A stretch of 64,000 nucleotides of DNA from Actinomycetes bacterium (GTDB lineage: Bacteria; Auribacterota; JAJCYG01): NCBI GenBank assembly GCA_029263055.1, contig JAJCYG010000058.1, positions 3,587-67,586 on the forward strand, given 5' to 3'. Under the pieces are notes generated by a model, which was not told the origin of the DNA, made no database searches, and saw only the letters and a program-made list of their open reading frames with translations. The position numbers and the translations under genes were made by a program. Numbering within the stretch: position 1 is the stretch's first letter; the number at the start of each line of letters is the position of its first letter. Positions 18,534-63,465 of this stretch are shown here, in pieces.

Positions 18534-18562
18534 AAAAAACCGAACTGCTGTAGGCAGCTCGG
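18534..18562 (-). terminator. Intrinsic terminator (riboswitch expression platform)
   Basis: Minus strand CCGAGCUGC-CUACA-GCAGUUCGG-UUUUUU. The 5' arm is the 3' strand of the aptamer. Confidence 0.85.
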
Positions 18563-48100: not shown

Positions 48101-51100
48101 GCCAATGCGGTCACGCAATCCAATCTCACGCACATCACGAAAATAAGAGGTTTGAGAAGCCGCTCGAACATTAAGAATGTCTGAAATCGCAACAGGCAAA
48201 CGGCGTAACAAACGATTGACTAAATAATCTTGAAAGTTAAAACTTGCTGCTCGAGTATCTCTCTCTGTTCGAATCCACTCAGCTAAAGTTGATTGGTCGA
48301 GACCAGCTAATGTTTGTAAATCTGTTCTAATCGTTTCTCCTAAAGTATTTAACGTGGTCTCTTTTTGCCTGTGAAGAGTACGGAGGTTTGCCAAACGACT
48401 TAATCCATCAGCCCGGCGTTCTGTTAAAGTAAAACGAATCAATTCAGAAACATAACGCTCTCGAGCCAAGTCAGCTTCTCCAACAACCTGTTCGTAACGT
48501 TCTAATTGCACTAACAAACGATCAACCACTACTCGGATCGGCGCGCCTGAAGCATGGCGGTGAGACAGGCGCTGCAAATATTCTCTTAAGCGACTTAATT
48601 GACGAAACCATGTTTGATCTGCTTGAATCGCCCGTTGGGTCAAACGATGGACTAATTGACGTTGTTGCAAACGGCGACCCTGTAACATACTGATTTCTTC
48701 ATCATACTTATCACCTGCGCTCAAACGTAATCGAGCTAAAATTTGTGGCTGAGTAGCACGCACTTTTTCTTGCGCACGGGCCACACCCTCTTCAGCCAAA
48801 CGAAGTTCATCAAGTTCATCTAACGTTGCTCGTAAATAAGCTAAATAGTTTTGCGCTCTGGCTAAACGAGTTGATCCTTGTACAAAAGCAGGGATCACAA
48901 GTTCTGATAAAGGAATCCGTAAAATGTCTTCTGAACCTCCGCTTGACAAATCTGCAATCAATTGTGCGATCCCTCGAATGCGAATTTCAATATCATCCTC
49001 TTCACGCTGGCGAATAATACGAGCAAACCCTGAAACGCCATCATAGCCATGAATGTTTCCTAAACGAACTGAAAGACGCAATTGAACTTGAGTCCTCTCA
49101 TTAAGAGCAGCTGGTAATTCACTTCGAATTTGTGTAGATAGAGCTTGATATCCTTGTCGAGCCAACACTCCCTCAGCCAACACTTCATCAAGCATGCGTT
49201 GATTTAAAACAGATTCTTGTAAAAAGTTAGCAGGAAGCTTAATGGTTTGCCCTTCACCATTTACAACCCCAGTATCTTTAAGCTGCTGCAAAAGTGCTAA
49301 AGCTCGTGTACGAGAAAGTACAGGGCGACGGCTAATTTCAGAAACCAAATCAGCATTACTTACTTCACCTCGAATGTTTAAAACAGCAAGCACTCGATTA
49401 ACAGTGGCTTGATCACGGTTAAGGTATTGAATTTCATTTCTAAAGAGTCGATACACTTGGCTACGAATACCAGCAAATTCTACTGCGCGGTGATTGCCAA
49501 ATTCTCGGCGTAGCACTTGTTCAAAAAGAGACCAATCAATTCGGTCTTGGCTCAAATCAGAGATAACTTCAGCGCGACGATTGGTTTGAAATTGAGCACG
49601 TGGTGCTTGACGATTTGGTGCATAAATTAAAGAGTGAGCATAAGACAAATCAAGATCATGAGTCATTTCAGTATAATAACGGGCCGTGTAATCTGTTGAA
49701 AGAGTGCCTGCTTGAAGTTGACGAATAAAAGGAAGTCCTTGAACTAAATGACGTTTAACCTCAGCCCATGAAAGGGAGGATCCAGCTTCGAGGCGTTCCA
49801 CAACCGCTTTTAAATTGTCTAAAGAGGCGGTTCCATTTCCTGTCCATATTGTTCTCCCAAGAGGATTGTTGCGAGCTGATTGAATCGCTGTGAGCAAACG
49901 CTCTTTATTGGCATCGGCATCAACTTGGCTTCCTGAAACAGAGGTATACTGAGTTAAGATTTGCGTGTAAAGATCTTCTGCTTCCATTATCTGTTCAATC
50001 CAAATTGGATTGTATGAGAATGAATAAGCTAAACCAGAGACATCTCCCAAACCAGCAAGAAGCTCGCTTGCGTTATACTGACGCGCCCGTTCACTTGCTG
50101 CGTTCATACGAATATGAAGCAAGTTATAGTGCTGAGCTAATTCACGAATTTGAAGTTCATTTGAATCTTTGACTTGAGTCAAGTGGGCTAACCAACGTTG
50201 TGCTTCTGTTAGTAAACGTTGCTCACGTCTTAATGCTGTATCAGCACGGGCAATTTCTCGATCAACTTGTTGAGTAAAGAGATCAGCATCATCAGAAGCA
50301 AGGCGTTCAATTTGGGCTAATTGCAAACCTCCTTGAATGGCACCAATCACAGGTTTATCTTGCACGCCCTGAGAGACTAATTCTCCTTGACTAGCCAAAT
50401 ATGATTCGAGTTGAACCCAACTGCCACGATTTTGAACAGCTAAATCTCTTAATCGATTAACCAAACGAGTAACCGCCTCTAAAGAAGGATCATTTAAACT
50501 TAACCCTTGATTGCGAAGTTGTGTTTCAAACAAACCAATCACATTGCTCACTTCATCGTAATCAACTTTTAACTGACCAATTTGTTGAATAAAGGCTTGA
50601 AAAGAACGGGCATTAAATGAGGTGCTGCTATTCACATTTGTGGCCAGTTGCTCATAAGCCAGAATCGCTTGAATCTCTTTTTGACGGAGCTGATTTAAAT
50701 GATTGATCAAACGAGTCACATCCACATTACGTGTACTAGCAAACTGCATGGCTGTTAAGGCCTCAACTTTGCTTAGTTGCAAAGTACGTCTTCGAGCTTC
50801 AATAATGCTCGTACGCCCTTGTCGGTCTTGCACCATTAAACCTGCTTCATGAATAGCTTGATTCAAACGGGCTGTAGACCCTCTCAATCCAATCAAGCGA
50901 ATACTGGTTTGTTGTAAATCATTAAGAGACTGATTGGCAAGTTGAAGTTCTAATTGGCGTAGATCAGCATCTTCATCTGATTTTCGAATCGGGTTCACAC
51001 GGTTCAGCTGAGCCACTAAAGCACGCAAGCGTTGTGGCAACCAACTAGGTCCTTGATTGCTTAAAAGACCTGACCAAAATAAGGATGATGACAAAAATAA

Positions 51101-54100
51101 AAATGCCGAAAACACCAATCGACGTAGCCAAGGCTGAATATGTTTTTCTTCAAAACGCTTGAATCGTTCTCCTGCTGTTCTAAAAGCAGGGGTTTTAACC
51201 GATGAATCAAAAAAGAAAATGCTGATTCCCAAAAGAACCGCTCCTGCACCTAAAGCAATCAAGCCTGGCAAACCAATTTGCGGAATAAAAGGCCCTACCG
51301 CTCCAATCAAAAGTAAAAGGACAGGAACCACAGGGTTTAAAAAGACCCTTTTAACCGCGTTATATATCAAGAGCTTGAAACTTCCCACCATTGAAGAGGT
51401 CTTTGCCACAATTTCACGGGAGAAAATAATCGGCGAAACAATCATCCCTAAACCAATAAAAAGGTTCATTCCCAAAACAGCCCATAACACTAAATTGTTC
51501 ATTGGAATGGTTCCAATCAAAACCCCATAGCCAATCGAACCAATCAGCCCTAATCCCATAAGCTGTGTGTAAATAATGCTTTTGGAGTAGATTGAAACAA
51601 GAATCTCTCTAAAGGTTTTACTCTCAACATTGACATTTGCTTTCACTCCAGTATGACTAGCTCGCTTAACCGAACCAAACATTTGTCCTGTAGCCCCAAA
51701 CATTTGCGAAGGCATTTGAGCTGTGTAATACCAAGTTAAAAAGAGATAGGCCAAAGGCATTAAAATAGGTGCGAGCAAAATAACGCCTAAAATAACCACA
51801 TAACGAAGCTGCTTATGAGCCAAATATTTTTTCAAAAATTTAGCCGGCGCATATTCGCCACGCTTGTCATCTGGACTGATTCTAAAAAAAGATGTCATGC
51901 GACTCACTTTTTCATTAGCAAATGATTCTAAGTTAATTGCATTTGGCGCTAATGAAGCAATGATTCCAAACGGAAGCAACATAAGCGGCATGGCTGTGTA
52001 AACATTAGAAATACCTAAATTCCAAATCCAAATATTGGCAAATGTTAAAATCATTAAAGGAAGCAAAATCACAAAACCAAATAAATTTGAGGCAAATTGA
52101 ACTTTAGCTGTCCAAGGAACCCGTGGGTTTTTAAAGAAAGAAAGCATGTCTTCAGTAAAAAGACCGCGTGCTTTAGACGCCCCAACTAAAACTCGGTGAA
52201 ATGTTCTTATACCAGGCCATGTTTTAACAGCATTTTTAACTTTTTGCGGGATCACCCCACCTAATGAAAAATAAACAATGCCACCGATCACAAAAGTAAA
52301 ACCAAAGAAAAGAGCAAGCTCTACAGGAAAAGCCCCTAACCCGGCTAAAAAACCATTCCAAAAAGGTTCAAATAAAGTGACACCGGCAATTTTAGGACTC
52401 CAACCTGTTGCGGCAATTGTAATAGCAGTGAGAGGCAACAAGTAGCGAACTTTAAAAACACCCAGCAAACGAGATGGATTTTTCAAGGTTTCAATGGTTT
52501 GAGAAAAACCAACATAAAAAATAATGTAAATAGGAACAGCAACCACTAAGGCCAACAAGAGTAACTGCACAACTTCCAAACCAAAGACTGAAGTCAAAGC
52601 AGGGTTGCTAATAATCTCCCATGAAGGGAGCCAATCTAAAGCATTGGTGATCACAGCACCCATATTTGTCAGGACTTGTTCCATTCCTGGAAAGGGACCA
52701 AATAAATCCACTACCACTGAACGAAACCCAGAGATCACATTTTCTGAGATCAACGAAGAATAATTATTAGAAACAAGAATTAAAGCTGCAGAAGCTGTTA
52801 AAAAGAATCCATTCCAAAAACGTCCACCCCATGTTTTAAACCCTTGATAAGAACTTGCTCGCACAGCTTCTAAGGCTTCAATCAAAACCTGCCAGCGGAC
52901 AACCTTTGCCCCAGCACTCACTAAGTTTGTAAATGTTCCTTGAGTTCCAACAGCTGCTTTAAGTACTTTTTTCGAAGGATCAATCTTATCTTCTAATGTA
53001 TAACTATTAAAGAGAGCGGCAATCACAACTAATGGAACAGCCGATCCCAGAGCAACAGCTGGTCCCACAGCACCTAAGTATTGAGCCACCAGTAGAGACA
53101 CAATGCCTGCTTTAGCCAAACTCGCAAAAAAGTTTCCTTCAGCCACTTCACGTGTTGAGTAATAACGAATCCATTCCCCAACAAAAGGAAGCTTAGATAA
53201 AACTTCGCTTACTTCACCACGCAACATCACAAAACGAACTGTTTTTAAACCCGCATAAACAACCAGAGCAAACTTAACTAATCCGTAAAGAGTCGGACCT
53301 AATAACTCGCGGACCAGACCAACAAACTCAAGATTAAAAAGAGCTTGGCCTAAGGATAAGGCAACTTGGTGCAGACCTAAGTTATAAAACAGCAATCCAA
53401 AACCAACAGCAATCCCAGTCAACAGCACAGAAGCAACAACCATTTGAAAAGCTTTCCACTTGCTTCCAGTATGACGTTTTTCCCAAATTTGTTTGGCTGT
53501 TTGCCACAACAGATTCATCACTAAAAGAGAGCCGACAAAAAGAAGCAAACCAAAAGGGCTGATTCCAAATTGTTGAAAATAGATTGAGATGGTACTGATT
53601 CCATAAGAAAGATCAGGAAAAGGAAAAGGCAATCCAAAGACAGTCCAGCCACGAATACCTGCTTGCATTAATAAAAAAGCAACCGTTCCAAAGACAGGCC
53701 ACGAATAAAGACGAGGCGCATTTTTAAATACTTCTGTTACTGTGTTTCCTAAAAGCTCCCAAGCCCCTTTAGCAAACTTCCATGTTCGAACAGAAGAGGT
53801 CACGTTAAAGTCAGGCACCACTCCTTCACTTGTTCCTTCATAACCAGTGGTGACAGTAATTGAATCAAACTTATGCCCGGTTACAGGATTAATCAACTCA
53901 GTTGACATCATTTGTTGCTGAGCATCTTCAGCAATAAAGGTACGACCTGAACGAGAATGCATCACATTGGTTAATGGACGCACTCCAAAACCTTGAGACC
54001 AAATTTTTTCTGAACCTGGAGAACCAATTCTCTTCTTCACATTACGGCGGTAATCCTTACCCCGTATGTGTGGATCAAAAGCTAAAGAAGCACGCAATGA

Positions 54101-57100
54101 AACACGGCTCACTAACTGGTTATGCCCATAAGCAAACGTCATGTCATTGGTTGGAACAATCTCTTTAGAAAAGATGCCGACTAAAGGCCCCACATTTCGA
54201 GTAACCATGTTCTCATCGCTGTTATTTGCTTCAGTGGTACTTTGAACAATGGCTAAGTTTGGATTTTCAAACATAAACTTAGCCATTTCCCAGGTCCCTT
54301 GTGTAGCAGCCCATGAAGATTTGTCATCAAACTGAAGGATTTTATTTAAACCCATATAATGCTCAGCAGGTTCGCCATTGACTTTGTTTGAAATCAAATC
54401 ACCCCAGCCCAACTCTTCATGCATAGTGTCATGAACTTGATCCCCTAAAAATCCGCGAATCCCTTGAGCATATAAAACTTCTCTAAAACGAGCGGTTACT
54501 TCTGACTCGGTTGGAGCACGGCGGAGAAAACTTGCATCGGTCCACACGTCATAATAAAGCTCCCATTCACGCACAGAAACGTTACTAGGAAACTGAGCTT
54601 TAAGAGGATCTGATTCAGCTAAATGTTGAGTTATAATCCGAATCAATTCTTTATGACGCGGACTTAAAGGAATCACAGAAAGATTTCCATCTGCTTGAGC
54701 CACTTCATTAACACGTTTGTTCAAGACATCTTCTTGATAGCGCAACACTGAAGCCATCTTTATTTCATTTAAGGATTGTTTATACTCTAAAACCAATTCA
54801 AGAATCTCTATTCCATCAGTCAGCTCTTCTTCACCAAGGAGTTGCACCTCAACTTCCCAGTCAGGATTAACAGATGGATCTGAGTCAATACCATTACTCT
54901 CTGCCACTAAAAGATTAAGCGCAAATTTTCTTGCCTCTTCCTTTTCATTCTCTGTTAGCTTATTTTCTATTTCAAAAATCTTTTCAACAGTGCTATAAGA
55001 AATAGAAAGGGCGCTCGCGATCGTTTTCATTATTTCTTCAGATCGAGTTAATGCCCGACCTTCTTCATCACGAATTTCTTCAGCAAACTCTTTTAAATTG
55101 TTTTCAACTCTATCAGTCATTTGAACAGATAAACCTAAGACCTCAGCTGCTGACATAAACGCCCATTTTTGTAGAGCTTGGCTACGTCCTAAAGCAAGGT
55201 CAATCAGGTCGTCTGCTTTTGCTTTAATCGCTTTAGAAAGATTTTCAACCTGCTCTTCCCAAACAGGGTGATCTGGAGCAAGAGGATCTATTGGCACCAA
55301 AGAACCAACAAAAGGAACAGAAGGAACACCACGGATCTCTGCTAATAAAGTCTCATTATCAGCATCATTACTAATCCCATTGATCTCTGCTAACAAATAA
55401 AACAATGCTTTTTTACGTGCTTTTTTATTTTCATTAGCACTAGAAGAGTCTTCACTTTGAACGATTAATCTAGCGGTTCTATAACTAACAGAAAGAGAGG
55501 TTGCAACAGTTTGAATAACCTTCTCTTCTTTTGTTAAACTTCGAGCATGGTGATGTTGAACCACTTTTTCTTGTAAAGCCAAGTCTTCTTCAATTTTTTG
55601 GCTCGCTTCAACAGACGTATTTAAAATTTCAGCCATGAAACGATGGCCTGCTTTTTGCTCCATCCAAGCAAAGACTATAGGGTGTATTTGGTTTTGATCT
55701 AAAAGCTCTTTCTTTACTTCACGGTAGGCATCGGTATAAGAGAGCCCCCCGTTTTTAGGGTCTATCTTCTTTAATATTTTTGTTTGGATTGTCCACACAG
55801 GTTCTGTTTTTAAGATCATCCACGCTTTATGACGATTTAAAACAGGGGCAAACGTATCGCCGAGCCTTTTAGAAAGCTTAACAACTTCTTCAAGCGCAAA
55901 ATCAATTTGAAATGGGACTGATTGGTTACTCGCTTTAGGAAACAAACCATGACGGCGATAAACCTTACCTTTATCTAAAACTTCACCATGCTTAGGACGA
56001 GACGTGTATTGAATTTTTTGTGTTTCATAAAAAGCAGTTCGCACATAAAGTTGTTGTAGATTTTCAAAATTCTCTTCAGTCACGCCTAATCGATACAGCG
56101 CTTCTCCAAAAAAATTATCATTAGTATTATCTTCATTATCCTTAGACATAAACTGAGTCACCCATTTGAATGAATTAAGAACAAGGGCGCTGTCAGCCAT
56201 CTCTAAGTTCATCCTACTAAGCTCACTCACCGCATCCGCATCAGCAACAGGCTCTAAATTTGATTCAATTTTGTTTCGATACGCTTTTACCAAAATAAGG
56301 TCCAGAACTTTATCTGTTAAGTCTCCTGTCCCTCTAAGACGATCTGTTTGCACCACATGCAAACGCTTTAAGGCTTCATCCATCACTTCATGGCGTGTCC
56401 ATGCCTTATTATGGCTTTGGTCTGCTTTCCATTTTTTTTCAGCATCAGCCACATCAAAAACTTTATTCACTTCAATCACTTCTTTTAAACTACGCAGACG
56501 ATCGCGGTATGGATTAAGGTCATCTAGTAAACCTTCCACCATTTCTAAAGCAGCTTCATAAGCAGATTGAAAACTCATTTTTGGATCTTTATATCTTAAT
56601 TCTTGAATCACAAAAGTAATAACATCTTGATAATCTAAAAGATCTTCCATAGGGCGAGGATCTGATAAAGGATTCACAGCATTGTGTCTAAGCACATCTT
56701 CTCTTAGTTCATTAAAGTAAGCTCCTGTCTTTTCTGCTTTAGGCTTTACTTTATCAGCCAACAAATACAAGTAGTCATCAGCACGCGCGATATTCACTCG
56801 ATGATCTAAACCACGGGTTGCCAGTTGTTCTTTATAATACCCAGCAGAACGTTGGTGCATTCGCAATCCCTTAATAATAATATGAATATCTTCATTATGG
56901 ACTGGGGTGAAAAGAGTCATGCCTTCAACCGTGGCATTATCAACTTTATTTTCTTCAACGCGGGTCACTTTTTGATTACGGCGATCAGAAGAGGTTCCAC
57001 GTGTTCTAGGACGAAACGTCCAAACAGAATGAATCCCTTTAGCAATGGCAAAGAAAGCTCCTACCACAACAGCCTGAGTTAAAGCAGTAGGCTCGGCAGC

Positions 57101-60100
57101 AAAGAAGCTGGCCCAATAAGAAATAAAATGGGTTCCATTAGCTAAAGTACTTAAAATTCCGAAAGAATCTGCGCCAAAACCATTAATCAACAACTGAGCG
57201 ATTTGAGGATAAAACCAGAACAGAGCAAGAGCAACAACCACAAAAGCTCCCCCTACATAAGCATTTCCCCAACGTTGTGCTTTTTCATCATTTCCACGAG
57301 TCGCCCAAACAGCTCGAATAAAAGGAAAAGCGATTATAAAAGATCCAATGATAAAGAGAAAATTTTGAGAGGCCAATGCCTGAGCAAGTGAAGCTAAAGC
57401 ATCTACGTGAGCATAAAAAGCGGTTCCAACGCCCCCTTGAACTAAAGGCTGAGCCACAACTCGAATCAAATCAGGCAATAATAAAAGGGCTGTTGAAAAC
57501 CCAATCAACTTAGCCCAAAATTCACCTTTGTTACGGCTTGGCATTTTATTAAAGACACGAATCACTCCACCCACCACAACAGCCAAAGTCAAACCTAATA
57601 ACATATAAAGGAAAGAACCAGGAAAAACAGTGGCTAAGACCACTCCAACAGCAAATGCTTCTGCTGTTAAATAAATGGAGGTTAAATTTGAACGAAGAAT
57701 ATTATTTTTAATCAAACGAGTTTCTGAAAAAAGTGGGAGCACAAAAATGAGTAGTGCGAAAAAAACCACAGGAAAAAAGAATGGCGAAGCAGCAACAGCA
57801 ATGCCTCCCATTAGCGCTAATTGATTAATAGTATAAGCTGAAACACCTACTCCGATTAGCGGAGAAAAAGCATCAATTATTTTTCGAACAACCTGTCTAA
57901 ATCGTGAGGCATCCCCCTCAGCTTCTCTTTTTAAACGTTGGCGTTCGGTTTCTAATTTACGGCCATCATTGATCACAATGGCTGTCACAATCCACATTGC
58001 AGCAAAGAAGAAAAGTGCTGAAGAAAGGTAAAACGACACACCATTAAAACTAGCTGTGACCATGGCTCCACTTTCAAAAAAACCTTCAACTAAGGGTGAA
58101 CCAATGGCGATGAGTCCAGCAATCACACGCCACAACAAACGAAGTGTATTTGGAATCACACCTGAATATTCTTCCTCGTCATCTTTATCTTTACCTGCTT
58201 GGTTTGCCGCTAATTGACGATCAGGTGTTTGCGGCCCAACTGGAGCAGCGGGTTGTGTCACTGCAGGAAGAGGTGTTGCTGGAGTCACTGCTTCCGCTGT
58301 AACAGTAGGTTCTTCAGGGCGTTGCCGCACTCTCTGAACAGGCTGAACACGAGCAGCAACAGGAGCACCACCCAAACCTTGCACAGCATCTAAATCAATA
58401 TCTGTAGGATCTGCTGATGGAACCGTTGAACCCTCTGGTGGAGCCTCAGCAATACCCATCTCTAAATCCCCATATTGAACAGCAGGAACTTGAGGCTTTT
58501 TAGTCAACAAATAAGGAGCTAAAAAAGCTGTTACAGGGTAAAGAGCGATTGTCTTTGAAATGGGGTTAGCAAAAAAGATCTCATAAAGTTCTAGTTGTGA
58601 ATATGAACTATCTTCACCATTGATTTGGTTTAAATAATGCATCAAACTTTCTGCTAAAGGAAATTCTTGAAGAAAAGAGTCTGAAGAAAAAGTAAAATTT
58701 TCTTCAATGAGACTAAATTGATTCTCATTTGAAATACGCCACTGCTCGTTTATGTCTTTGATGTGTCTTAAAACAGTATGAATCTCAATAATGGAAGGTC
58801 TGTTCTCTCCTGTTAATTGAGCCAATAAAAGGTCAACCTGTTTGACAAAAGCATCTGCTTGTATTTGGCGCAACTGCTCTTGATTAAATCTTAAACTAGG
58901 ATCTGTAATATCACCCGACTCCACTCGAGCCGCATAATCTCTGTCAACAAATTGAGTTTTAGTTAGAGAGAGTTTCATCCGTTCTAAAAGAGGGCGTAAC
59001 ATTTCAACAGCAACAGGCTTCACTTGAGGCAACGTTTGAATCGATTCCTTTGCCTGGCCATTAACCCAATCAGAAACATTATATTCTTCGCTTAAAGCTT
59101 CAGCCAATCGATCGGTTTGACGTGAAATAAAAACGTCATAGCCATATTGAGCACCGTAATGAGAAAACACAAGACTAAAAACTCGGTCAAGCCCTTCACG
59201 CACTTTAGCTTGTTCTTCAGTTTCTAGATCACTGATTTTAGATTCCAGTGTTTCAAAATAAAGAACGGTTTGTTCAGTATTAAAGGATTGCAGAAAAGAA
59301 GATAAGTTTTTTATTTTAGTTCTCAATCCAGAAACATCTTCTAAATTATTTCGAGCCAAAACCAAGCTACTTTGTACTAATTGGTTTTCTATGACTTGAT
59401 CCGCTGCTTCAGACCAACGCTGTAAACGAAATTGAAGCGTTGCTTGAATCAAAAGATCCACTCGATCAGCGGTTGAATCAACTAAAGCTAAGGCAGCTTC
59501 TTGAACTGGTTTAGGTGCTTGGCTAATAAGGGCTAATGCTTTTCTTAAATCTTTTTTATAAAGAATAGGGTTGGGTGCTGAAGCAAGCGAAATAAAATAA
59601 GACCGCAACTCAGAGAGCAATACTTCTTCCTCAGAAGGAGCTGTAGGAGCCACATCTCCTCCAAGCATTCCAACCACTTCAGCATCTTCTACTTTTTCAA
59701 CTTCAGCAGCTTGAGTTTCATCTTCTTCATATTCATCTTCTTGAGTCAGACCAAGAGCTAGCGGGTAAAAACCTAAAACAAGGTTGGCGCGCTGAACAAA
59801 TGTCTCTAGGGTATCTTCTCTTTCAATAAGATCAAAAATCCCAACTTGCTCTTGAGATTGAAACTTATCTTTAAAACGCTGAATCATCCCAAAATATTCT
59901 TCAGTTGATTTATCTGCGGCGACTTCATCCTTTATACGAGCTGCAATCGTAAGAGGCCCTCCTTTTCCATCCCCTGGATCTGTTTCTCCAGCAAAGTCTG
60001 TTTCAAGACGATGCGCAAAAGCATCTAATAGGGCAATAACCACACCTTTAATAATTTTATCGTCAGAAAGCACCTTCTTTGAATCAGCAACTACCAACTC

Positions 60101-62941
60101 ATTCAAAGAGAGGGATTCGGTTGCTCCTGACACTGTCACAGGAAGAATCCAAGATTGTTGCTCAACAGTAAGTGAAGAGTTTTGGTCAGTAATAATTTGA
60201 ATAAAACGATCGGTTTGCAAATCTAAAAATTGATCTAGATCGCTCTTGTTTAAAAGTGCTCCAAGTAAAAAGTCAATCTGGCCAAAAAAGGTGGGAGCAT
60301 CCTCTTCACTCAACCTGTATAAATTTTTATCGACAAAATGCTTTGCTTCACTCGTAGGATAAAACCTTAATTTAAGTAACGCCAGCTTAACCGCAGATAT
60401 TTGTCCCGCATCAAAATGAGGAGTCAAACTATCAAAAAGAGGTTCAGGATCATCAGCATTCCATAAGTCGCTATTCTCATCGGACAAGACAGCAACCATC
60501 AGACGTTTGACAATATTCAAATTAGAGTAGACACCTGATCCAGAATACTTTTCATTGATAGAATTTTTTAACTCTGAATCTAAAAGAAAAGAATAAGCTA
60601 ATGCTTTCTTTAAAACAGCGCGTTCAACTCTAGATGTTGGCTCATTTTCTTCAACACCTGGATTTAAAATTTTCTCGAGATCTCGGATAACCTTACTTTC
60701 TTCTGCTGTCAACAGGATTGCAACATGCGGTGGCTCAGAAGGTTCAACCTCTACAGCTGGTTGTTTACCCCGTTGGCTGTGAAGACTACGCTCTCTAAAA
60801 AGTTCTAGCGTTGTTTGAGGAACCTCATTTAAGCTCACTCCTTGTTGAAAAACCAATGTTTTGCCTAAAGCATCAAGCTCATACCGTTCTTCTCTATCCC
60901 CTAAAAGCATTGCATGATCTTTTGCCTTTTCAGCATCCACCACAAGCACTAAAAACGGAGTTCCATTTATATCTAAAACCGCACGAAAGCTTTCAGAACC
61001 CATATCTGAAAAAGCTTGAGCTTTAACAATTCCTACAGGCCCTTTCATTTGAATTGAACCAGAATCAAGAGCTTGATTTAATTCGTTTAAGTCTGAAAGA
61101 GTCACTCCGGTTAAAGCAGCCTTAACAATCGGTCCTAAAAAAGTAAGCTGCGTTCTAACCAAAGCAGCACTTAACATTGTTTGTTGTTGCATTGGGTTTG
61201 CTGCACTGGCTAATTCAATTCCCAAACGGTTCCCAGAACGAAGCAAATCACGCTCAAATGGAGTGCGTACATTAAGCATGCGCTTTAAATAAGAAGATTC
61301 ATCATAATGAACCATACGCGGGGCCACCACAGCATACGACAAATCTTTACCCGCAAAAATTTCCTTAACCCCATCCGTGTGAAAACCACCTGCGATCATC
61401 ACCACTAAAGCAGCATTTTCTTCATCCATTTTAGCCAACAAATTTTCAGCCATGGCTTGATCACGTTTAATCGCAATCTCATAAAAAGACTCTAATAAAG
61501 GCGTCTGCTCAAAAAGCAGATCTAACTTCATTAATGCTTCTTTTAAAGCTTCTACTTCAGCGGCCACATTGGGGCGTTCCCAAATAATGAGATTCAAGCT
61601 TTGAAGCAGGCTATTTAAACTAAGTTCTTCTTTTTGCGTTGCCCAAACAGCTAAATTTTCGCGGCTCATTTCAAGTTGAACTAATTTTTCAAGCAAGCTT
61701 AATTGCGACTCCAAACGATCGAGTTCTACTTGTGCCATATCTTGCAACCAAAGCTCTTGAATGTCGCGAGTCGCTTTTTCAATCTCAACATAAAGAACCG
61801 GGCCATCCATGTTGGCATGCATTTTAATGGAATCAACATAAAGAAAAAGATTAGGATAACGCTCACGTACAGCTTCTGGCGCCATGTAATTTTCTTCAAC
61901 AAACTGTTCAAGCAGTGTGTAAAAACTTAAAGCCGACACATGGTTTAATTGAAACTTCAAACTCTCTTGAACAAAAATAGCCAACTCTTCTTGAGTTAAC
62001 TTTGCTTGAAGTTCCTTCATTAAATAACGACGTTCTTTTTCAATCCGTTTGAAATCAATCTTATCTTCAAGGTGGAGCACAGCTAAAGCAGCTTCAATCA
62101 TAGGAAAATTAGTGTTTAGAGTGGCGCTCACTCCAGAAGCAATAGCAGCTTCTTCTAATTGAAAAAGGTATTTTTTAAATGTAAGGGTTCCGTCTTCATA
62201 CTGACGGTAACTATGAGTTAGATCTAAAAGCTCTTGTGGATAGACTTTCTTTTGAATGGAATAAAGTGACTCTTTAACACTCTTTAACGTGATTAAATTT
62301 TCAGTTTTAATGAATTGAACTTTTTTGAAAATATCTAAATTTTTAAGATAAAGCTCTGGGGTTTCAATTCCGTAAATCTCAAACGGTTGTTCAGACTCTA
62401 AAGCAAAAGCTTCTGCACCAGAAAGATAAGACTTACGCATAAAAAGATCTGAAACAATTTTTTGAACTTGAGGATCAGCATAACCAAACACAGATTGTGG
62501 ATTAACCTCTCCATGAGCCGCTTCAACTGCGATCAGAACTTTTCCAGGTAAGTTCTCTTTATCAGACAAGACTTGTTCTAGAATTTTAGCAATGTGGGAT
62601 TGAGCTTCAAAATTAGCATGCGAATCTTGAATTTGAATAATGGCTGGATTGGCTACTTTCCCTTTTTTGAGGTTAGCCACCACATCAACATCTTCATTAG
62701 AAAGATAAACCTCTTTTAACGAACCAAACTGCTCTGGAATACGAAGTGATTCAAGAAACTCATTGGCACTTGAAGAAATGGTTTTGACAGATTGATTCAG
62801 AGAGATGTTAGGTGCTGTTACAGGAACAGACCCAATCCCTTGAGCGCGGCCTGTGTCATTGCAAATAAACGTGAACGCAATCACGCTAGCAATCGACCGA
62901 ACCACATTCTTATATTTTTTGTTTCGAGTTAGTTTTAACAT
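33128..62941 (-). CDS. Giant multidomain membrane protein, ~9937 aa: signal peptide, ChaN/TIKI-like module, TM blocks, split GT2-like synthase, TolC/OEP-like repeats, degenerate (alpha/alpha)6 domain
   Basis: ORF track gives 33128..62998; start moved to ATG 62941 (MLKLTRNKKYKNVVRSIASVIAFTFICNDTGRAQ) because the upstream in-frame part overlaps the riboswitch terminator. Motifs: IQDSHANFEAQ, AGGFHTDG, FTPVHNED, FPKASN, QFDDKS, AIVQS, AYGHN, IAEDA, RTWKFAKG; KYREGRASASDVALVR..AEATLRRILNI. Confidence 0.93.
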   Translation of the reverse strand: MLKLTRNKKYKNVVRSIASVIAFTFICNDTGRAQGIGSVPVTAPNISLNQSVKTISSSANEFLESLRIPEQFGSLKEVYLSNEDVDVVANLKKGKVANPAIIQIQDSHANFEAQSHIAKILEQVLSDKENLPGKVLIAVEAAHGEVNPQSVFGYADPQVQKIVSDLFMRKSYLSGAEAFALESEQPFEIYGIETPELYLKNLDIFKKVQFIKTENLITLKSVKESLYSIQKKVYPQELLDLTHSYRQYEDGTLTFKKYLFQLEEAAIASGVSATLNTNFPMIEAALAVLHLEDKIDFKRIEKERRYLMKELQAKLTQEELAIFVQESLKFQLNHVSALSFYTLLEQFVEENYMAPEAVRERYPNLFLYVDSIKMHANMDGPVLYVEIEKATRDIQELWLQDMAQVELDRLESQLSLLEKLVQLEMSRENLAVWATQKEELSLNSLLQSLNLIIWERPNVAAEVEALKEALMKLDLLFEQTPLLESFYEIAIKRDQAMAENLLAKMDEENAALVVMIAGGFHTDGVKEIFAGKDLSYAVVAPRMVHYDESSYLKRMLNVRTPFERDLLRSGNRLGIELASAANPMQQQTMLSAALVRTQLTFLGPIVKAALTGVTLSDLNELNQALDSGSIQMKGPVGIVKAQAFSDMGSESFRAVLDINGTPFLVLVVDAEKAKDHAMLLGDREERYELDALGKTLVFQQGVSLNEVPQTTLELFRERSLHSQRGKQPAVEVEPSEPPHVAILLTAEESKVIRDLEKILNPGVEENEPTSRVERAVLKKALAYSFLLDSELKNSINEKYSGSGVYSNLNIVKRLMVAVLSDENSDLWNADDPEPLFDSLTPHFDAGQISAVKLALLKLRFYPTSEAKHFVDKNLYRLSEEDAPTFFGQIDFLLGALLNKSDLDQFLDLQTDRFIQIITDQNSSLTVEQQSWILPVTVSGATESLSLNELVVADSKKVLSDDKIIKGVVIALLDAFAHRLETDFAGETDPGDGKGGPLTIAARIKDEVAADKSTEEYFGMIQRFKDKFQSQEQVGIFDLIEREDTLETFVQRANLVLGFYPLALGLTQEDEYEEDETQAAEVEKVEDAEVVGMLGGDVAPTAPSEEEVLLSELRSYFISLASAPNPILYKKDLRKALALISQAPKPVQEAALALVDSTADRVDLLIQATLQFRLQRWSEAADQVIENQLVQSSLVLARNNLEDVSGLRTKIKNLSSFLQSFNTEQTVLYFETLESKISDLETEEQAKVREGLDRVFSLVFSHYGAQYGYDVFISRQTDRLAEALSEEYNVSDWVNGQAKESIQTLPQVKPVAVEMLRPLLERMKLSLTKTQFVDRDYAARVESGDITDPSLRFNQEQLRQIQADAFVKQVDLLLAQLTGENRPSIIEIHTVLRHIKDINEQWRISNENQFSLIEENFTFSSDSFLQEFPLAESLMHYLNQINGEDSSYSQLELYEIFFANPISKTIALYPVTAFLAPYLLTKKPQVPAVQYGDLEMGIAEAPPEGSTVPSADPTDIDLDAVQGLGGAPVAARVQPVQRVRQRPEEPTVTAEAVTPATPLPAVTQPAAPVGPQTPDRQLAANQAGKDKDDEEEYSGVIPNTLRLLWRVIAGLIAIGSPLVEGFFESGAMVTASFNGVSFYLSSALFFFAAMWIVTAIVINDGRKLETERQRLKREAEGDASRFRQVVRKIIDAFSPLIGVGVSAYTINQLALMGGIAVAASPFFFPVVFFALLIFVLPLFSETRLIKNNILRSNLTSIYLTAEAFAVGVVLATVFPGSFLYMLLGLTLAVVVGGVIRVFNKMPSRNKGEFWAKLIGFSTALLLLPDLIRVVAQPLVQGGVGTAFYAHVDALASLAQALASQNFLFIIGSFIIAFPFIRAVWATRGNDEKAQRWGNAYVGGAFVVVALALFWFYPQIAQLLINGFGADSFGILSTLANGTHFISYWASFFAAEPTALTQAVVVGAFFAIAKGIHSVWTFRPRTRGTSSDRRNQKVTRVEENKVDNATVEGMTLFTPVHNEDIHIIIKGLRMHQRSAGYYKEQLATRGLDHRVNIARADDYLYLLADKVKPKAEKTGAYFNELREDVLRHNAVNPLSDPRPMEDLLDYQDVITFVIQELRYKDPKMSFQSAYEAALEMVEGLLDDLNPYRDRLRSLKEVIEVNKVFDVADAEKKWKADQSHNKAWTRHEVMDEALKRLHVVQTDRLRGTGDLTDKVLDLILVKAYRNKIESNLEPVADADAVSELSRMNLEMADSALVLNSFKWVTQFMSKDNEDNTNDNFFGEALYRLGVTEENFENLQQLYVRTAFYETQKIQYTSRPKHGEVLDKGKVYRRHGLFPKASNQSVPFQIDFALEEVVKLSKRLGDTFAPVLNRHKAWMILKTEPVWTIQTKILKKIDPKNGGLSYTDAYREVKKELLDQNQIHPIVFAWMEQKAGHRFMAEILNTSVEASQKIEEDLALQEKVVQHHHARSLTKEEKVIQTVATSLSVSYRTARLIVQSEDSSSANENKKARKKALFYLLAEINGISNDADNETLLAEIRGVPSVPFVGSLVPIDPLAPDHPVWEEQVENLSKAIKAKADDLIDLALGRSQALQKWAFMSAAEVLGLSVQMTDRVENNLKEFAEEIRDEEGRALTRSEEIMKTIASALSISYSTVEKIFEIENKLTENEKEEARKFALNLLVAESNGIDSDPSVNPDWEVEVQLLGEEELTDGIEILELVLEYKQSLNEIKMASVLRYQEDVLNKRVNEVAQADGNLSVIPLSPRHKELIRIITQHLAESDPLKAQFPSNVSVREWELYYDVWTDASFLRRAPTESEVTARFREVLYAQGIRGFLGDQVHDTMHEELGWGDLISNKVNGEPAEHYMGLNKILQFDDKSSWAATQGTWEMAKFMFENPNLAIVQSTTEANNSDENMVTRNVGPLVGIFSKEIVPTNDMTFAYGHNQLVSRVSLRASLAFDPHIRGKDYRRNVKKRIGSPGSEKIWSQGFGVRPLTNVMHSRSGRTFIAEDAQQQMMSTELINPVTGHKFDSITVTTGYEGTSEGVVPDFNVTSSVRTWKFAKGAWELLGNTVTEVFKNAPRLYSWPVFGTVAFLLMQAGIRGWTVFGLPFPFPDLSYGISTISIYFQQFGISPFGLLLFVGSLLVMNLLWQTAKQIWEKRHTGSKWKAFQMVVASVLLTGIAVGFGLLFYNLGLHQVALSLGQALFNLEFVGLVRELLGPTLYGLVKFALVVYAGLKTVRFVMLRGEVSEVLSKLPFVGEWIRYYSTREVAEGNFFASLAKAGIVSLLVAQYLGAVGPAVALGSAVPLVVIAALFNSYTLEDKIDPSKKVLKAAVGTQGTFTNLVSAGAKVVRWQVLIEALEAVRASSYQGFKTWGGRFWNGFFLTASAALILVSNNYSSLISENVISGFRSVVVDLFGPFPGMEQVLTNMGAVITNALDWLPSWEIISNPALTSVFGLEVVQLLLLALVVAVPIYIIFYVGFSQTIETLKNPSRLLGVFKVRYLLPLTAITIAATGWSPKIAGVTLFEPFWNGFLAGLGAFPVELALFFGFTFVIGGIVYFSLGGVIPQKVKNAVKTWPGIRTFHRVLVGASKARGLFTEDMLSFFKNPRVPWTAKVQFASNLFGFVILLPLMILTFANIWIWNLGISNVYTAMPLMLLPFGIIASLAPNAINLESFANEKVSRMTSFFRISPDDKRGEYAPAKFLKKYLAHKQLRYVVILGVILLAPILMPLAYLFLTWYYTAQMPSQMFGATGQMFGSVKRASHTGVKANVNVESKTFREILVSIYSKSIIYTQLMGLGLIGSIGYGVLIGTIPMNNLVLWAVLGMNLFIGLGMIVSPIIFSREIVAKTSSMVGSFKLLIYNAVKRVFLNPVVPVLLLLIGAVGPFIPQIGLPGLIALGAGAVLLGISIFFFDSSVKTPAFRTAGERFKRFEEKHIQPWLRRLVFSAFLFLSSSLFWSGLLSNQGPSWLPQRLRALVAQLNRVNPIRKSDEDADLRQLELQLANQSLNDLQQTSIRLIGLRGSTARLNQAIHEAGLMVQDRQGRTSIIEARRRTLQLSKVEALTAMQFASTRNVDVTRLINHLNQLRQKEIQAILAYEQLATNVNSSTSFNARSFQAFIQQIGQLKVDYDEVSNVIGLFETQLRNQGLSLNDPSLEAVTRLVNRLRDLAVQNRGSWVQLESYLASQGELVSQGVQDKPVIGAIQGGLQLAQIERLASDDADLFTQQVDREIARADTALRREQRLLTEAQRWLAHLTQVKDSNELQIRELAQHYNLLHIRMNAASERARQYNASELLAGLGDVSGLAYSFSYNPIWIEQIMEAEDLYTQILTQYTSVSGSQVDADANKERLLTAIQSARNNPLGRTIWTGNGTASLDNLKAVVERLEAGSSLSWAEVKRHLVQGLPFIRQLQAGTLSTDYTARYYTEMTHDLDLSYAHSLIYAPNRQAPRAQFQTNRRAEVISDLSQDRIDWSLFEQVLRREFGNHRAVEFAGIRSQVYRLFRNEIQYLNRDQATVNRVLAVLNIRGEVSNADLVSEISRRPVLSRTRALALLQQLKDTGVVNGEGQTIKLPANFLQESVLNQRMLDEVLAEGVLARQGYQALSTQIRSELPAALNERTQVQLRLSVRLGNIHGYDGVSGFARIIRQREEDDIEIRIRGIAQLIADLSSGGSEDILRIPLSELVIPAFVQGSTRLARAQNYLAYLRATLDELDELRLAEEGVARAQEKVRATQPQILARLRLSAGDKYDEEISMLQGRRLQQRQLVHRLTQRAIQADQTWFRQLSRLREYLQRLSHRHASGAPIRVVVDRLLVQLERYEQVVGEADLARERYVSELIRFTLTERRADGLSRLANLRTLHRQKETTLNTLGETIRTDLQTLAGLDQSTLAEWIRTERDTRAASFNFQDYLVNRLLRRLPVAISDILNVRAASQTSYFRDVREIGLRDRIGTIDAVLAGLDSHSTRRVVPLPGSGRTSGGVVPAVSGTSFLVTTDNLATGVMQDSRVVAAQAGLERARLQRTSRYRRFAPRVAAVLGASDFATEGTATDSSPRETDLTVGARASVSLSVQDLIEASQVNRAVQEQEHAVHQAAQQVLMERFIAASDVLFSRQKVELGRAHIEGLRLVLSETETKYREGRASASDVALVRTEISREELNLIVFRSEVFQAEATLRRILNIPSNQSLRFNDLGIEIDQIRSTVAQLQNGALTRMLEHAGISRETLTASRGQNLDLLRAQNRGEQIQAGLRSAASTSIFHTEMGEHWSALSLVPRVLVNFSYAHDFVDSTNTLTADARLIWTIFDTQTGRNIRRQVALSDLNSREQLRILHDEKLRTEQVYRAQVETQQRFATLLQHLGDAAGRMRTVDIPALRRAYQNHPTTENLRELMAALRLQANAMDSASVRQRWMRETLGAQRGQNLVPDTWNGQVQNLTDVFRDIPNRMIQNHPEILFRDSEIQLAQTMLDTTGGLWVFDRFSLQGLAGARYQNFTGNSNNVPGRFSNGQWYVGARAEVRINTLIDEQQALHTAEIREHTAQKAVAQFNLRKRGIETLIRIIVLNQALVVPTTGGTNRQFRVNQDNPTQATTELLQLLNQFQSLPGMRARIQADLLAATQNRNETLFTLERLTRQLAIELGMNPRALQLNINMTLNESNMNTLVAQFADLVRAGRSAQTELRRAQEARIAAERRLREERNSISGTFLNNGVLFAEYTYARSFNGNGDEHQLIAGIDLAALFSRDESSRRRSRDRFYSSSSRLSVTPGQDSARAIRSRTEAAAALRRATERKRTTGQELLQAEQAWTRVRGDTSVTNQRLFFDARRRYLRAVSADREALMNLGLAQITALYHEVPNVTSATHSTTPAQVRNYSSNQTYLEAAMTHSSIMQSAQSNLQQKQTALQTALDSAGILNRLIRFDGYQLEYTGRQFENRPNNGSNIVTHEGMARVLFHLNPSASVRATVLQAYLDYVRALELKARTEAQERLRIMQDLMGVAVSGDQLYVLTETLKGYHNSLTDTVVRVGSTRGIVSAWAGLAGRGNRILADDDLSILRDILEIEYDGTLELMLAARNFSRLSAGGDATNQAILDQVNQFVHGQAAPEFNRDEKRRIMDMIATAFNGPQTPAPYLTLALTKLSSLQIHRFLNTTNPAHITSMVNLGGFGEFAEPARRVAAQTLLENLNNFVQENAEVQESLNIFSIKEQQLNQLRQRNQDGLNLLKLNVGLNSQDTLTVTGIERLGLHRYNGRRVLPTEFQALLSSSNLDIEALNEAEANLLRTSDLLTTLGTHSEVMQFVLTGQDPTTDAARQEIERLNLQPWGNNTFEYIFLRNMRLGGGAGVNNFNFSNSDGNPTLQAFLEIGLDYLFISEIDDAIERTYLAQEATRIGTSMNDIRAHLQQVFRDLVRANMEFHANKNLITTNQALLNALNAEHRNGIGSLQDRQRAVQALANARRAQINAFMRFTVAAGVLENYGVNIADFLQRSSRRSAEPGSESLSERLQASPMGSSLFELGMRSGYFDISGTQTATYQIELGRREIEGYEANIASAQQLMAYFTARPSVEIRNQFNLTIRDLRRTMGHIEGEMRILMRRPIALHRQLHWNKLARRVALVATTPAVEDWHDGIMSSINTRSHNMAHELVALYDAQDTRSQEELYRLTGSRSGSFEITDTAFNNLFRHPRTGEGWSRRLRTSVQPAIDALRQRDPLQANILQELVNEKITEFETLLRARRTSFNNNRTLDREFRDYNRALRLDEARLAATEAPENESDADEELRERIQGVINTEAAALYNRFYQFIDRHSDDNPSESQRALAVAGEMRNVRSLRTLNEDSLLPGSTPEIEQADQVVQGRFRVQQWNSFRPRFTQMDLIWTDALRDRFISILSDKSLVESLLADSTYGTRGGKGNAPRTALTRLVRFIDAYHQAAAVRNQFQQAPTELTQSPIWNELINTYGFTTENARAFILRYERYAKTSPMNMNTVGGRRAFLTNLFDLSQENATRLAQQSTYTDLIRRMNEDRVVHYFRTVQRMERIQAIMHRAMGSFIHLATHDEMAAVIEANEDNPSEEGAYITRQRNEITRIQRNIARIQAQQGQSQLLRLDQPKEEATLFDLSLQRLSQSLNGLTRGFLAPLTRPRVVELSDDLAAFYQQRQTILRLKYQLAYQTQNRSSREVANTLSQSDINAQMAALQRQYAELFNRLIDNDHTWPLVQQFQQDLNQGFQDGATTYRGLTAIRGDLQRQLVDLQLERALEGDFSSVEPNSLASSVDLARREVAAASNRLNNASPDAQVTSNEMFNRSLLRLSELEQQLFRTSGVDPNQFQREAQAFFRANGVEDVSAFAATLSFPQEQIMASLNTVITTEIARLNAEQDPTSLATRSRQIELLNQARERLREYTASVATYKELLVQYYVNLQFNISRRAQSRVLSYTDAMKLHRSMAQALATSREIQSIRATLNAKGAEIISLVTHEDVKNPSSGAGIDVTEILARTHSGTQAQAEIQSIHDDYFFEQVLAPFYMNVARDRALILSQRFRTQRNAEPNRPDILVTFEFLDQQIRDLTQEKARFVNAIPMARHARIYDQALRLIFPADAAARTRLQQHPVGAQRLIGQALVFFRQDLQQIFTQNRDFIAEGDRNGGYVGDEERRNRYQLLTRLRQATIVDALGGNGFIPVQSFQAMQVLRQVYTKYLSYDTRIAAIEEQKTALVLNPSSAFRNLMPGFVQGLVPQADSQTSILWILQELLREKQNDTSLDGVARKQATEALALMQGEHGIMRVFRDWTITQVQFDEFREQLRRGELDANDPAVRRQQQQYESRAATLIGEFEARFAILAEKMRKTPFLNTLIQEMEQRVERLGVVENFAQIMQGLRDHAGLQLWGFVERAEGVRNSLIIERDMGRRYMLHLDSEGANLQARAQWQSYIDRLKITETLSYGHEEAFFFALTGSTQGGKETLPGNPAYRAIRNYRNLLGKMNQVNERLDQPNRPVVEADYDRFLNNKHVPLNYVVLNDPYIRREFNGQQIALPRSFEGDPYVYLSDVAQMIQWKVREGQFEHARSYSNFLAYRFLMDVKETGEFNLFNSVYDLQSTDAIRLNGQYVQSVKSNSELLEALVFMVSQIGDTRSLPYIYYLTHQLSQVTSGATVDAASEAARIQALRSAHQLLGQPRIQRLPMTDFMASLERLMVTEAVSTNPAVRTKLVEMMTWFRGAPGTVGAQALPASNIALVNLKNAVFENNFQIKSTASIETITHTFMLIRTLGLRQVNAAWGSSLTEADLTRMVQQARRIIETRRLVSQYDARFEGLSLEEGRLRSLGSYAGDREVVTRLLADVQGDKTAYLERLDEAGLIHWNVAGYGTRVVSTQDTLNYYFFLRAYQLLTPEKAAEAQEFLTAASRQASLGGQGIPEVLAEDPLTHRSARRLHIGSSALASLFLNGVNLATSATAPLPSVQTNRGRAEVTQVVRENVNHVFANTSFSTANTQLELKPMTANTAGEVTQVELVLNLTKAPSIDQFASSQFQENIFQYARDLRDQTGNIPNWMSLSDGLVQIQLSLRLTVDPVTHAVTGVEVNLPANIDAAIRAELEPALSSLQTRLNGVQIQGLSLARWAVLANVDSEANRMARSANVLRILRTGLMQTRFQHLRTALIANGNLAADATPVDYPLDEALIRATTAYIEAVRQNPSSQNRDVEHALNRVKVFLSAGVTTRDPLTLNLRLVRDMESYRQRRLGSLTTLRNLLQRLGFTTSNTSLAELVDAYSRYRQSNETLAPHVMQNMVEAEDALIRLQLDLTQEHLRALPLQKLWSLVPTDIQNGVNVVVVYGDKSITGTLTEGLLEQELTRSHLNDWVTVNGITLTGRSLSHSADETALMGRLGVAAQNPAGIAVSSASIENAHLIVLTDASQMAQLMRTHPTAFPKVVLLNDLIGTTQLDSARRLHGRGTTPEAAQQFATRYTEILRMGLVPQLQELKTERVDGQASPSLESMIAPLYREWSTANPAATFDQQFAEAMRLFQEASFVVGYPKLSLREFMNHTILLEVAQEISSRYPGELTGTLHLDDSELVERLIELDSLDQKREHSVLAGLIRLIEDFEARNVTGLVVPRGEEQLLPRLEQNGREILMAQVTHLAFQQSVTRFVEDAQSLVSDLMAVQLFNQIDPNFTLLVEPDVVDQYDISSDSGVVNQIEITKERLLEETREWFRLQQIDENNPIQIRIVPGNADDPVEFRVAPSGRIEMVLPVDHLMSLSRIQLGRDTIAAFNQRNRHQRDASRQVVGERGINLRVDRDVAVAHQMVGPNNFVDGLQRLVPRLRELAAQNSLHPNSVVIVRVIKGDATVTPNVRAVADIVRTYIDVTDGWVQEQVAALPAVQSVNSVEAFNERYQHQRGAGSATAPRGIELRTNVPEAELQRLQAAGLMAKIERLVPRFRALADTVNRSGRNRIVLIVSSTHSRDVVVDNLSDLRRVTIVLTPAQVEAELAALDKQADPPSGNKGAGKPAQAEKKSAADPKPGTKPTTKPVGKPKKDVPAKVDRVEPPTTKPAAKPQPNKRGQERTALKDGFSKVATDSKEAARIFQNQFGEAMNSESSEGLKTLVQENPDMRIEIFALASVKRVRQLQAMDKTTGEAQVNAARAVVSTIKFLLNTFSKELHQKKNDELQKQLKRAQAIIKKSETEKAEKSGQRSMKSGLGLDLKAMLAYESGDPKAALKKMLQGVLVGSQKEGKNPRLVQQLTPAYERMPAEAEVKNFIWKLSHLNKLMGGEYTELTLTTLSQSELERFYEMYQTYSKTLSAELSLDEREHALVRSFLEEKAKTEQRLDRELELVKETMKNSKALLVLNLEGLESSQIEQIQNQLADVPNLLVAIIVGSENDADRLSAQLEDTENIYAGTTRTLTALRESAWMVFEVTQYSNSDFGDQLMNQMVIEEVLRHLVPEQAPSELEEMLEGAQQEQQSEQNFGVAA

Positions 62942-62977
62942 TTTTTTATCAACCTTACCCCTTAATCGAATTTGAAC

Positions 62978-63022
62978 AAAAAAATAGCCAAGTTGCATGC
63001 TTGATTAAAACTGCAACTCGGC
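62978..63022 (-). terminator. Intrinsic terminator (riboswitch expression platform)
   Basis: Minus strand GCCGAGUUGCA-loop-UGCAACUUGGC-UAUUUUUUU, overlapping the aptamer 3' strand. Confidence 0.8.
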
Positions 63023-63180
63023 CAACTCTCACAAAAACAATTTCAGTCATACTCACATCACAACTAGTGGGAGTTCTCCCACTACAACAATATAAGTACA
63101 ACTGGTGACACCGAAGTGTCGATTTTAAGAGTCCCGTAGCTTTGCGCCCCACAATTGCTTGAGGTTTGCCCTGTCTTAAA
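63005..63180 (-). ncRNA. c-di-GMP-I (GEMM-I) riboswitch with ~95-nt insertion in the second stem
   Basis: P1 UUAAGAC/GUUUUAA; AGGGCAAACCUCAA-GCAA-UUGUGGGGCGCAAAGCUACGGGACUCU..[insert]..AGAGUUGGCCGAGUUGC. It lies in the 5' leader of the 9.9-kaa ORF. Confidence 0.85.
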
Positions 63181-63239: not shown

Positions 63240-63268
63240 AGAGTAGCAGTTTTCAATGGTTTTGTCAA
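63240..63268 (-). promoter_or_regulatory. sigma70-type promoter
   Basis: TTGACA-17 bp-TACTCT with TG extended -10, about 60 nt upstream of the riboswitch. Confidence 0.7.
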
Positions 63269-63459: not shown

Positions 63460-63465
63460 TGGCAC

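Follow-up and report, generated by a model that had tools for sequence, protein, structure and literature searches.

A class I c-di-GMP riboswitch candidate with a 99-nucleotide expansion of P1b upstream of a 9,937-codon gene

Introduction

According to the original description of the GEMM RNAs, the first hairpin consists of stems of 2 bp and 6 bp that flank a 3-nt internal loop, and is capped by a GNRA tetraloop (Weinberg et al., 2007; PMC1950547). The AAA linker between the hairpins is described there as virtually invariant and the P2 stem as variable in length. The same paper reports terminators overlapping P2 in 78 of 322 GEMM RNAs, an arrangement in which the ligand was predicted to raise expression (Weinberg et al., 2007; PMC1950547).

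The family is catalogued as GEMM-I (RF01051, clan CL00126), with Vc2 of Vibrio cholerae as its prototype. The ligand contacts are presumably G20, A47 and C92 in Vc2 numbering, and the letters in the name of the variant model c-di-GMP-I-GGC (RF03167) are taken here to denote the three ligand-contact positions. Literature searches found no paper on large P1b insertions, and none in which 'c-di-GMP riboswitch' and 'Omnitroph' both occur.

The locus described here lies on the minus strand of a 64-kb stretch of bacterial DNA (64,000 nucleotides, phylum Auribacterota), referred to below as the window; positions are those of the window unless another contig is named. The minus-strand leader of a 9,937-codon gene is likely to act as an ON switch of transcription, in the form of a class I c-di-GMP riboswitch with a neutral expansion of P1b. 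There is good in silico support for reading the leader as a riboswitch and an ON switch. The principal features are:

63005..63179, minus strand: c-di-GMP-I (GEMM-I) aptamer including the P1b insertion, from RF03167, the phylum model R1 and constrained folding
33128..62941, minus strand: gene predicted to be regulated, 9,937 codons, ATG at 62941, from translation and its N-terminal family

The locus shares with GEMM-I the two-hairpin core, the position in the 5′ UTR, a GNRA-capped P1a containing a 3-nt internal loop, the AAA linker and a bulge near the base of P1b. It differs from RF01051 in that the P1b loop is about 100 nt long and three-way branched, instead of a few nucleotides, in that P1 is formed only in a shifted register, and in that the score falls below the cut-off. 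It thus belongs to a known RNA family, as a member of unusual appearance in a lineage rich in such expansions.

Family assignment

A permissive Infernal scan of 62850-63550 aligned the full RF03167 model (positions 1-80) to 63008-63179 on the minus strand with a score of 39.0 bits (E = 1.4e-7), leaving about 100 nt unaligned in the P1b loop. No other model of the clan reached a higher bit score there. An independent covariance model, R1, was built from 25 aptamers of other genomes, none of them from the source genome. Its positions 1-83 aligned to 63008-63179 with 46.8 bits (a rough E value of 2.8e-11) and a 94-nt loop insertion, and all 13 P1b pairs in this alignment are standard, with the distal strand used as the partner. 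R1 had two matches in the window, the present locus and a second, insert-less GEMM-I that scored 70.8 bits:

18549..18633, minus strand: second GEMM-I, without insert (RF03167 65.5 bits, R1 70.8 bits), with an overlapping terminator

A first-pass annotation of this DNA had proposed a c-di-GMP-I aptamer whose second stem carries, in its distal loop, a large structured insertion, and had warned that standard searches may miss it. The first proposal is supported by RF03167, by R1 and by folding. The warning was justified as well: an Rfam scan of the whole window at gathering thresholds reported the GEMM-I at 18549-18633 as the sole riboswitch. At 63005-63179 the scores stay under both Rfam cut-offs, with 39.0 against 59 bits for RF03167, and 34.6 against 35 bits for RF01051 in a short alignment.

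The consensus of RF03167 reads CGCGAA where the locus has CGCAAA, with the A of the canonical class, so that the GGC label reflects score only and does not assign a subtype. CGCAAA is also found in every other phylum sequence printed, except for one (G007_C17), whose ACACAAAG keeps the linker A.

Structure of the aptamer core

The strands that form the base of the aptamer and its first hairpin are:

63173..63179, minus strand: P1 5′ strand UUAAGAC, which pairs with GUUUUAA at 63011-63005 (seven standard pairs in the fold)
63149..63164, minus strand: P1a hairpin CCUCAA-GCAA-UUGUGG, closed by a GNRA tetraloop of the GYRA type and containing one U.U mismatch, from the RF03167 and R1 alignments

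P1a is composed of GC/GC pairs, an AAA internal loop and a 6-bp stem that contains the U.U mismatch, which is the form of the GEMM first hairpin. In a paralogous leader of the same genome, described below, this hairpin reads CCUUAA-GCGA-UUAAGG, where C-G is replaced by U-A through changes on both sides, which are compensatory. The AAA linker is present at 63143-63141, in the context CGC-AAA-GCU. A tetraloop receptor in P1b was considered and dropped, the loop of P1a being GCAA and therefore of the GYRA type; with such loops, receptors are "almost never present" in the words of the original description (PMC1950547).

By alignment, the positions that would contact the ligand agree with the consensus: a G in AGGGC, an A that is the first of the linker, and a C in UUGC-A. 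In the register of the Rfam model all three P1 pairs are non-standard. The alternative is the 7-bp UUAAGAC/GUUUUAA helix, shifted by about 4 nt, which absorbs three junction nucleotides and by taking them might disturb the binding pocket. RNAalifold, applied to the phylum alignment, did not call P1 there either; in the paralog P1 appears, by eye from the sequence, in the canonical register. The earlier statement had P1 and the ligand-contact bases intact; the contact-aligned positions agree with it, and a P1 of 7 bp is obtained only in the shifted register.

The P1b insertion and the insert-less paralog

The second stem and its terminal loop are made up of the following elements:

63126..63141, minus strand: P1b 5′ strand AGCU-A-CGGGAC with the extension UCUUA, which forms 13 of 13 standard pairs with 63031-63015
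63015..63031, minus strand: P1b 3′ (distal) strand UGAGAGUU-GG-CCG-AGUU, which equals the paralog strand GAGUUGGCCGAGUUGCA in 17 of 17 positions
63029..63127, minus strand: 99-nt insertion in the P1b terminal loop, where the paralog has the 8-nt loop CAUUAAAG
63107..63120, minus strand: insert hairpin A, GACAC-UUCG-GUGUC, seen in the sequence and in every fold
63044..63104, minus strand: insert hairpin B, 61 nt with 17 + 8 pairs, from folds

The distal strand is followed at 63014-63012 by G, C (at the position of the ligand-pairing C) and A. Unconstrained folds, too, form P1b with the distal strand. For the 186-nt transcript of the aptamer domain, the constrained fold that uses the distal strand has an energy of −58.4 kcal/mol and the free minimum −60.9 kcal/mol (2.5 apart), and the latter already contains both insert hairpins as well as P1a and the distal-strand P1b. 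It had been proposed that the distal strand is the partner in P1b, and this fold, the 17/17 identity with the paralog and the 13/13 pairs in the R1 alignment bear this out.

The paralog lies at G000:C32:26871-26951 (minus strand) of the same genome. It is an insert-less GEMM-I of 81 nt; the gene behind it, a paralog of the giant gene, encodes 3,637 aa and has a listed identity of 45% over residues 75-602 (38% over 515 aa by tblastn). The 5′ half of its leader is 88% identical over 43 nt to that of the locus, and its 3′ strand, GAGUUGGCCGAGUUGCA, is identical to the distal strand. When the paralog contig is aligned to the window, the alignment skips exactly 63029-63127, with 8 letters between, so that a P1b loop of 8 nt stands against one of 99 nt. 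The paralog terminator has the same overlap with the aptamer and a U-tract (−19.8 kcal/mol). A global MAFFT alignment of the two leaders misplaced the 5′ half of the paralog inside the insert, and its 3′ part alone is usable.

The paralog serves as a natural insert-less control for the score cost of the insert. It scores 51.2 bits with RF01051, above the cut-off, and 49.8 bits with RF03167, and we infer from this that the shortfall of the locus against the Rfam cut-offs is what a loop insertion of 94-99 nt would produce. The insert presumably arose after the unit of riboswitch and gene had diverged from its insert-less paralog, unless the paralog lost it. Such a pair, one member with the insert and the other without, amounts to a natural experiment on the role of expansions.

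With respect to structure, the 110-nt domain at 63133-63024 has a folding energy of −43.5 kcal/mol (z = −6.36), and none of 200 shuffled sequences folded as well. It is a three-way junction of the P1b extension, the UUCG hairpin and the 61-nt hairpin. The two perfect hairpins named in the first-pass annotation are both present, the second of them, UAGUGGGAG-AA-CUCCCACUA at 63084-63065, being merely the perfect tip of hairpin B. On the 3′ side of hairpin B, AAAUUGUUUUUG at 63043-63032 is single-stranded. Hairpin B and three A residues are followed by UUGUUUUUG (63104-63032 region, minus strand), which resembles a weak terminator or pause site inside the aptamer.

The insert matched nothing in Rfam beyond noise and is present in a single copy, with no second one in the genome. 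A mobile-element origin was discarded, the best other match in the genome covering only 22 nt (E = 0.081), as was duplication from the aptamer 3′ strand and terminator, since 227 of 1000 shuffles did as well as its best local alignment (score 15). Searches for orthologues of the leader found none, and the insert structure is thus without covariation support. Against 60 genomes of the phylum, all of them related to the source genome at phylum level only, the 401-nt leader matched in conserved pieces of the core alone, and a plasmid collection gave no match. The N-terminal 700 aa of the giant protein had no close relative in metagenome and genome collections. The 17-nt 3′ strand occurs exactly at no fewer than 120 loci (>=120) in metagenome contigs, and among the matches listed none has a GEMM core upstream. 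Among sequencing runs, none of RNA is listed as containing the stretch. It occurs in two DNA runs from a single study; one is possibly its source, and the other is identical and shows no strain variation.

Expanded GEMM-I aptamers in the phylum

In the 79 genomes of the phylum, RF03167 gave 100 matches at E ≤ 1e-4, distributed over 40 genomes. Long matches, spanning 126-245 nt, account for 22 of the 100 with the present locus included, and five of these long ones pass the 59-bit cut-off. The first-pass annotation had described a c-di-GMP-I variant; the insertion does not make it a special one, given comparable expansions in 22 of 100 phylum GEMM-I matches, five of them above the Rfam cut-off.

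In the other 21 long sequences the extra nucleotides lie in the P1b loop in 15, form an extra hairpin between P1a and the linker in four, and do both in two. The 15 sequences with P1b-loop expansions include 11 that were classed by anchor distances and four that were classed by eye, the anchors having failed or been misplaced. When 14 of the enlarged P1b regions were folded, z ranged from −1.4 to −8.5, with 13 of the 14 at −2.3 or lower. These expansions add 50-165 nt to an intact core (for example at G043:C253, G014:C56 and G033:C58). They share no sequence with the insert of the present locus, and their architectures vary from single long hairpins to multi-branched forms. Conservation of P1b expansions across species and genera is seen elsewhere in the phylum (G043/G009; G027/G018). 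Most likely, the insertion is a lineage-typical and functionally tolerated expansion of a stem of variable length.

The additional hairpin between P1a and the linker was seen at G009:C7:7054-7185, G028:C19:11961-12092, G055:C17:3158-3298, G007:C341:587-772, G018:C73:18023-18237 and G043:C178:2473-2656. It is combined with a long P1b at two of these six loci.

A different view of the insert, compatible with the preferred explanation of the core, is that the 99-nt domain has been selected as a pause or timer, as a platform for protein binding or as a second sensor. Its exceptionally stable fold (z −6.36), the U-rich tract AAAUUGUUUUUG on the 3′ side of hairpin B, and the maintenance of P1b expansions across species and genera elsewhere in the phylum (G043/G009; G027/G018) all speak for selection. 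Nevertheless, the domain belongs to no Rfam family beyond noise, is unique to this locus and missing from the paralog, and has no relative that would show conservation, while the expansions of other genomes differ from it in sequence and architecture. A selected function of the insert is accordingly unlikely. Nothing was found to indicate the second input suggested earlier, there being no Rfam match beyond noise, no second genomic copy and no homologue, and the suggested kinetic tuning of folding has found no support so far.

An extension of this idea to the whole lineage, in which large P1b expansions are a selected adaptation of the phylum and of giant-gene-bearing neighbours and act as timer, pause or docking platform, is just as doubtful. 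If it were true, a self-folding domain, which at this locus has a strong hairpin and then a U-rich tract immediately ahead of the distal strand, would set the time at which the aptamer closes, and would shape the commitment to transcription of a 30-kb gene.

Other explanations of the locus

It may also be asked whether the locus is a decaying relic with weakened c-di-GMP binding, whose erosion shows in the insertion, in the register shift of P1 and in the U.U mismatch; in that case termination in the leader would be constitutive or be overcome by another mechanism. Among the four GEMM-I of the genome the locus does have the lowest score, its scores are under both Rfam cut-offs, the canonical-register P1 is lost and P1a contains a mismatch. 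Yet the AAA linker and the contact-aligned positions agree with the consensus, and P1b has 13 standard pairs out of 13. About 10-12 bits of the deficit against a near-identical paralog are probably the alignment cost of the insertion, and a strong terminator in front of an intact frame of 9,937 codons would require a route for read-through. Decay of the aptamer is therefore improbable.

Least credible, and rejected on the evidence of the paralog (identical 3′ strand, overlapping terminator, 8-nt loop), which also settles the position of the insert, is a short aptamer of 84-89 nt (63180-63091), in which the proximal CCAGUUG-UA-CUUA supplies P1b and the P1 3′ strand, the UUCG hairpin forms the tip of P1b and the rest is expression platform. 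RF01051 does align to 63097-63180 with 34.6 bits, 0.4 under its cut-off, and RF03167 gives 33.1 bits if offered that stretch alone; however, the 5′ half, common to both forms, supplies most of this score, RF03167 prefers the long form (39.0 against 33.1 bits) despite the insertion, R1 independently selects the distal strand, and it is this strand that the paralog matches in 17 of 17 positions. In addition, the short form folds 22 kcal/mol worse (−36.2 against −58.4 kcal/mol), is not the minimum-energy fold at any of 26 transcript lengths taken every 6 nt, and finds no significant similarity between insert and 3′ region that would point to a duplicated strand (score 15; 227 of 1000 shuffles). 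A role for the short aptamer as a transient co-transcriptional intermediate was also discarded, as at none of the 26 lengths is it the minimum-energy fold.

Terminator overlap and the proposed switch

The long aptamer, with its P1b expansion, is followed by a terminator with which it shares a strand:

62978..63024, minus strand: predicted intrinsic terminator with a 17-pair stem and one bulge (63024-63008 with 63002-62985) and U7 at 62984-62978, from folding and a custom scan

The 5′ arm of the terminator (63024-63008) is made of the P1b and P1 3′ strands of the aptamer, and in the custom scan the stem begins 17 nt inside the aptamer. The hairpin alone has an energy of −22.3 kcal/mol; a consensus terminator scan did not flag the terminator at 62978-63024. 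The same overlapping design is present at both other giant-gene riboswitches of the genome, the paralog and the one at 18549-18633. In a crude scan of the phylum leaders with enough downstream sequence, terminator-like sites were found in 35 of 46 and overlap with the aptamer in 10 of 46.

For the full leader the minimum-energy fold (−77.3 kcal/mol) includes the terminator, and the form with the aptamer (−63.9 kcal/mol) is 13.4 kcal/mol less stable. Given this difference, switching would have to be kinetic, which is the usual case. In the proposed mechanism the insert domain would return the distal 3′ strand to its P1b partner. With c-di-GMP bound, P1b and P1 would hold the shared strand, the terminator would be blocked and transcription would proceed into the giant gene; in the absence of ligand the terminator, which is far more stable, would form. 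The earlier prediction of an ON switch from terminator overlap is in agreement with this model, in which the aptamer's 3′ strand doubles as the 5′ arm of the terminator, as in the paralog; the arrangement is the one reported for 78 of 322 GEMM RNAs (PMC1950547).

In ligand-free folds UAGCUUU at 63184-63178, which begins shortly before P1 and runs into it, pairs with AAAGCUA at 63143-63137 (minus strand), which comprises the linker and the beginning of P1b. Such a helix, which the paralog lacks, could serve as an anti-aptamer and leave the distal strand available to the terminator.

The giant gene and its surroundings

A downstream transcript of about 30 kb had been predicted, and the gene at 33128-62941 agrees with this length. 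The listed open frame begins further upstream, at an ATG (62998) within the terminator. AAGGGG/AAGG sequences resembling Shine-Dalgarno sites are present at 62963-62953, and the N-terminus of the protein is signal-peptide-like. Transcription would start from a candidate promoter that a consensus promoter scan did not flag at 63240-63268:

63240..63268, minus strand: candidate promoter TTGACA, 17 nt, TACTCT (a weak −10), recognized by eye

A strong terminator closes the gene upstream, which makes the giant gene a transcription unit of its own. This terminator is intrinsic, with 17 pairs, at 63470-63509 (minus strand), and the gene that it ends is a fragment of a group-1 glycosyltransferase at 63545-64000 (minus strand). 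A perfect 13-bp inverted repeat, AAAGTTATCCACA-N21-TGTGGATAACTTT, is located at 63411-63459, between that terminator and the riboswitch, and consists of two facing perfect DnaA-box 9-mers; it may be an operator of the giant-gene promoter. A third DnaA box, with one mismatch, lies within the leader at 63208-63216. Over the window as a whole DnaA boxes are not enriched (19 found, 15 ± 4 expected).

Three of the four GEMM-I riboswitches of the genome precede giant genes, of 9,937, more than 6,165 and 3,637 aa. The gene downstream of 18549-18633 is the one of more than 6,165 aa, and its N-terminal domain is related to that of the present gene (tblastn E = 1e-38). Both window riboswitches and the paralog thus precede members of one N-terminal domain family:

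62941-61200, minus strand: N-terminal domain of the 9,937-codon gene, from similarity searches
18496-17000, minus strand: N-terminal domain of the gene downstream of the second GEMM-I, likewise
G000:C32:25122-26711: N-terminal domain of the paralog gene, likewise

This domain of about 500 aa (residues ~98-580), shared by the three giant genes, belongs to a family that has multiplied greatly in part of the phylum: 20 of 79 genomes carry many copies each, at the N-termini of open frames that reach 24,620 aa in length. A Pfam search with the domain gave nothing above cut-off, ChaN/Tiki reaching 23.2 bits against 27.7. The association of these riboswitches with giant genes points to c-di-GMP as a signal that licenses the expression of very costly surface or secreted giant proteins. 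In two preprints on giant genes (10.1101/2023.11.21.568195; 10.64898/2026.06.07.730766), as they appear in a search listing, the word 'riboswitch' does not occur.

The main value of the locus lies in this link between c-di-GMP and giant-gene expression and in the annotation gap that it exposes. Curated Rfam thresholds miss riboswitches with large insertions in variable stems, and c-di-GMP regulons are therefore under-counted in poorly studied phyla; a lineage-specific model recovers the locus cleanly.

Candidatus Omnitrophota is the group in which atlas look-alikes of the N-terminal domain are most frequent, which is a lead only. Midway along the giant protein, residues ~4998-5174 of 9,937 (window ~47950-47420, minus strand) match the Pfam family OEP (outer membrane efflux protein, TolC-like) with 35.4 bits against a cut-off of 22.
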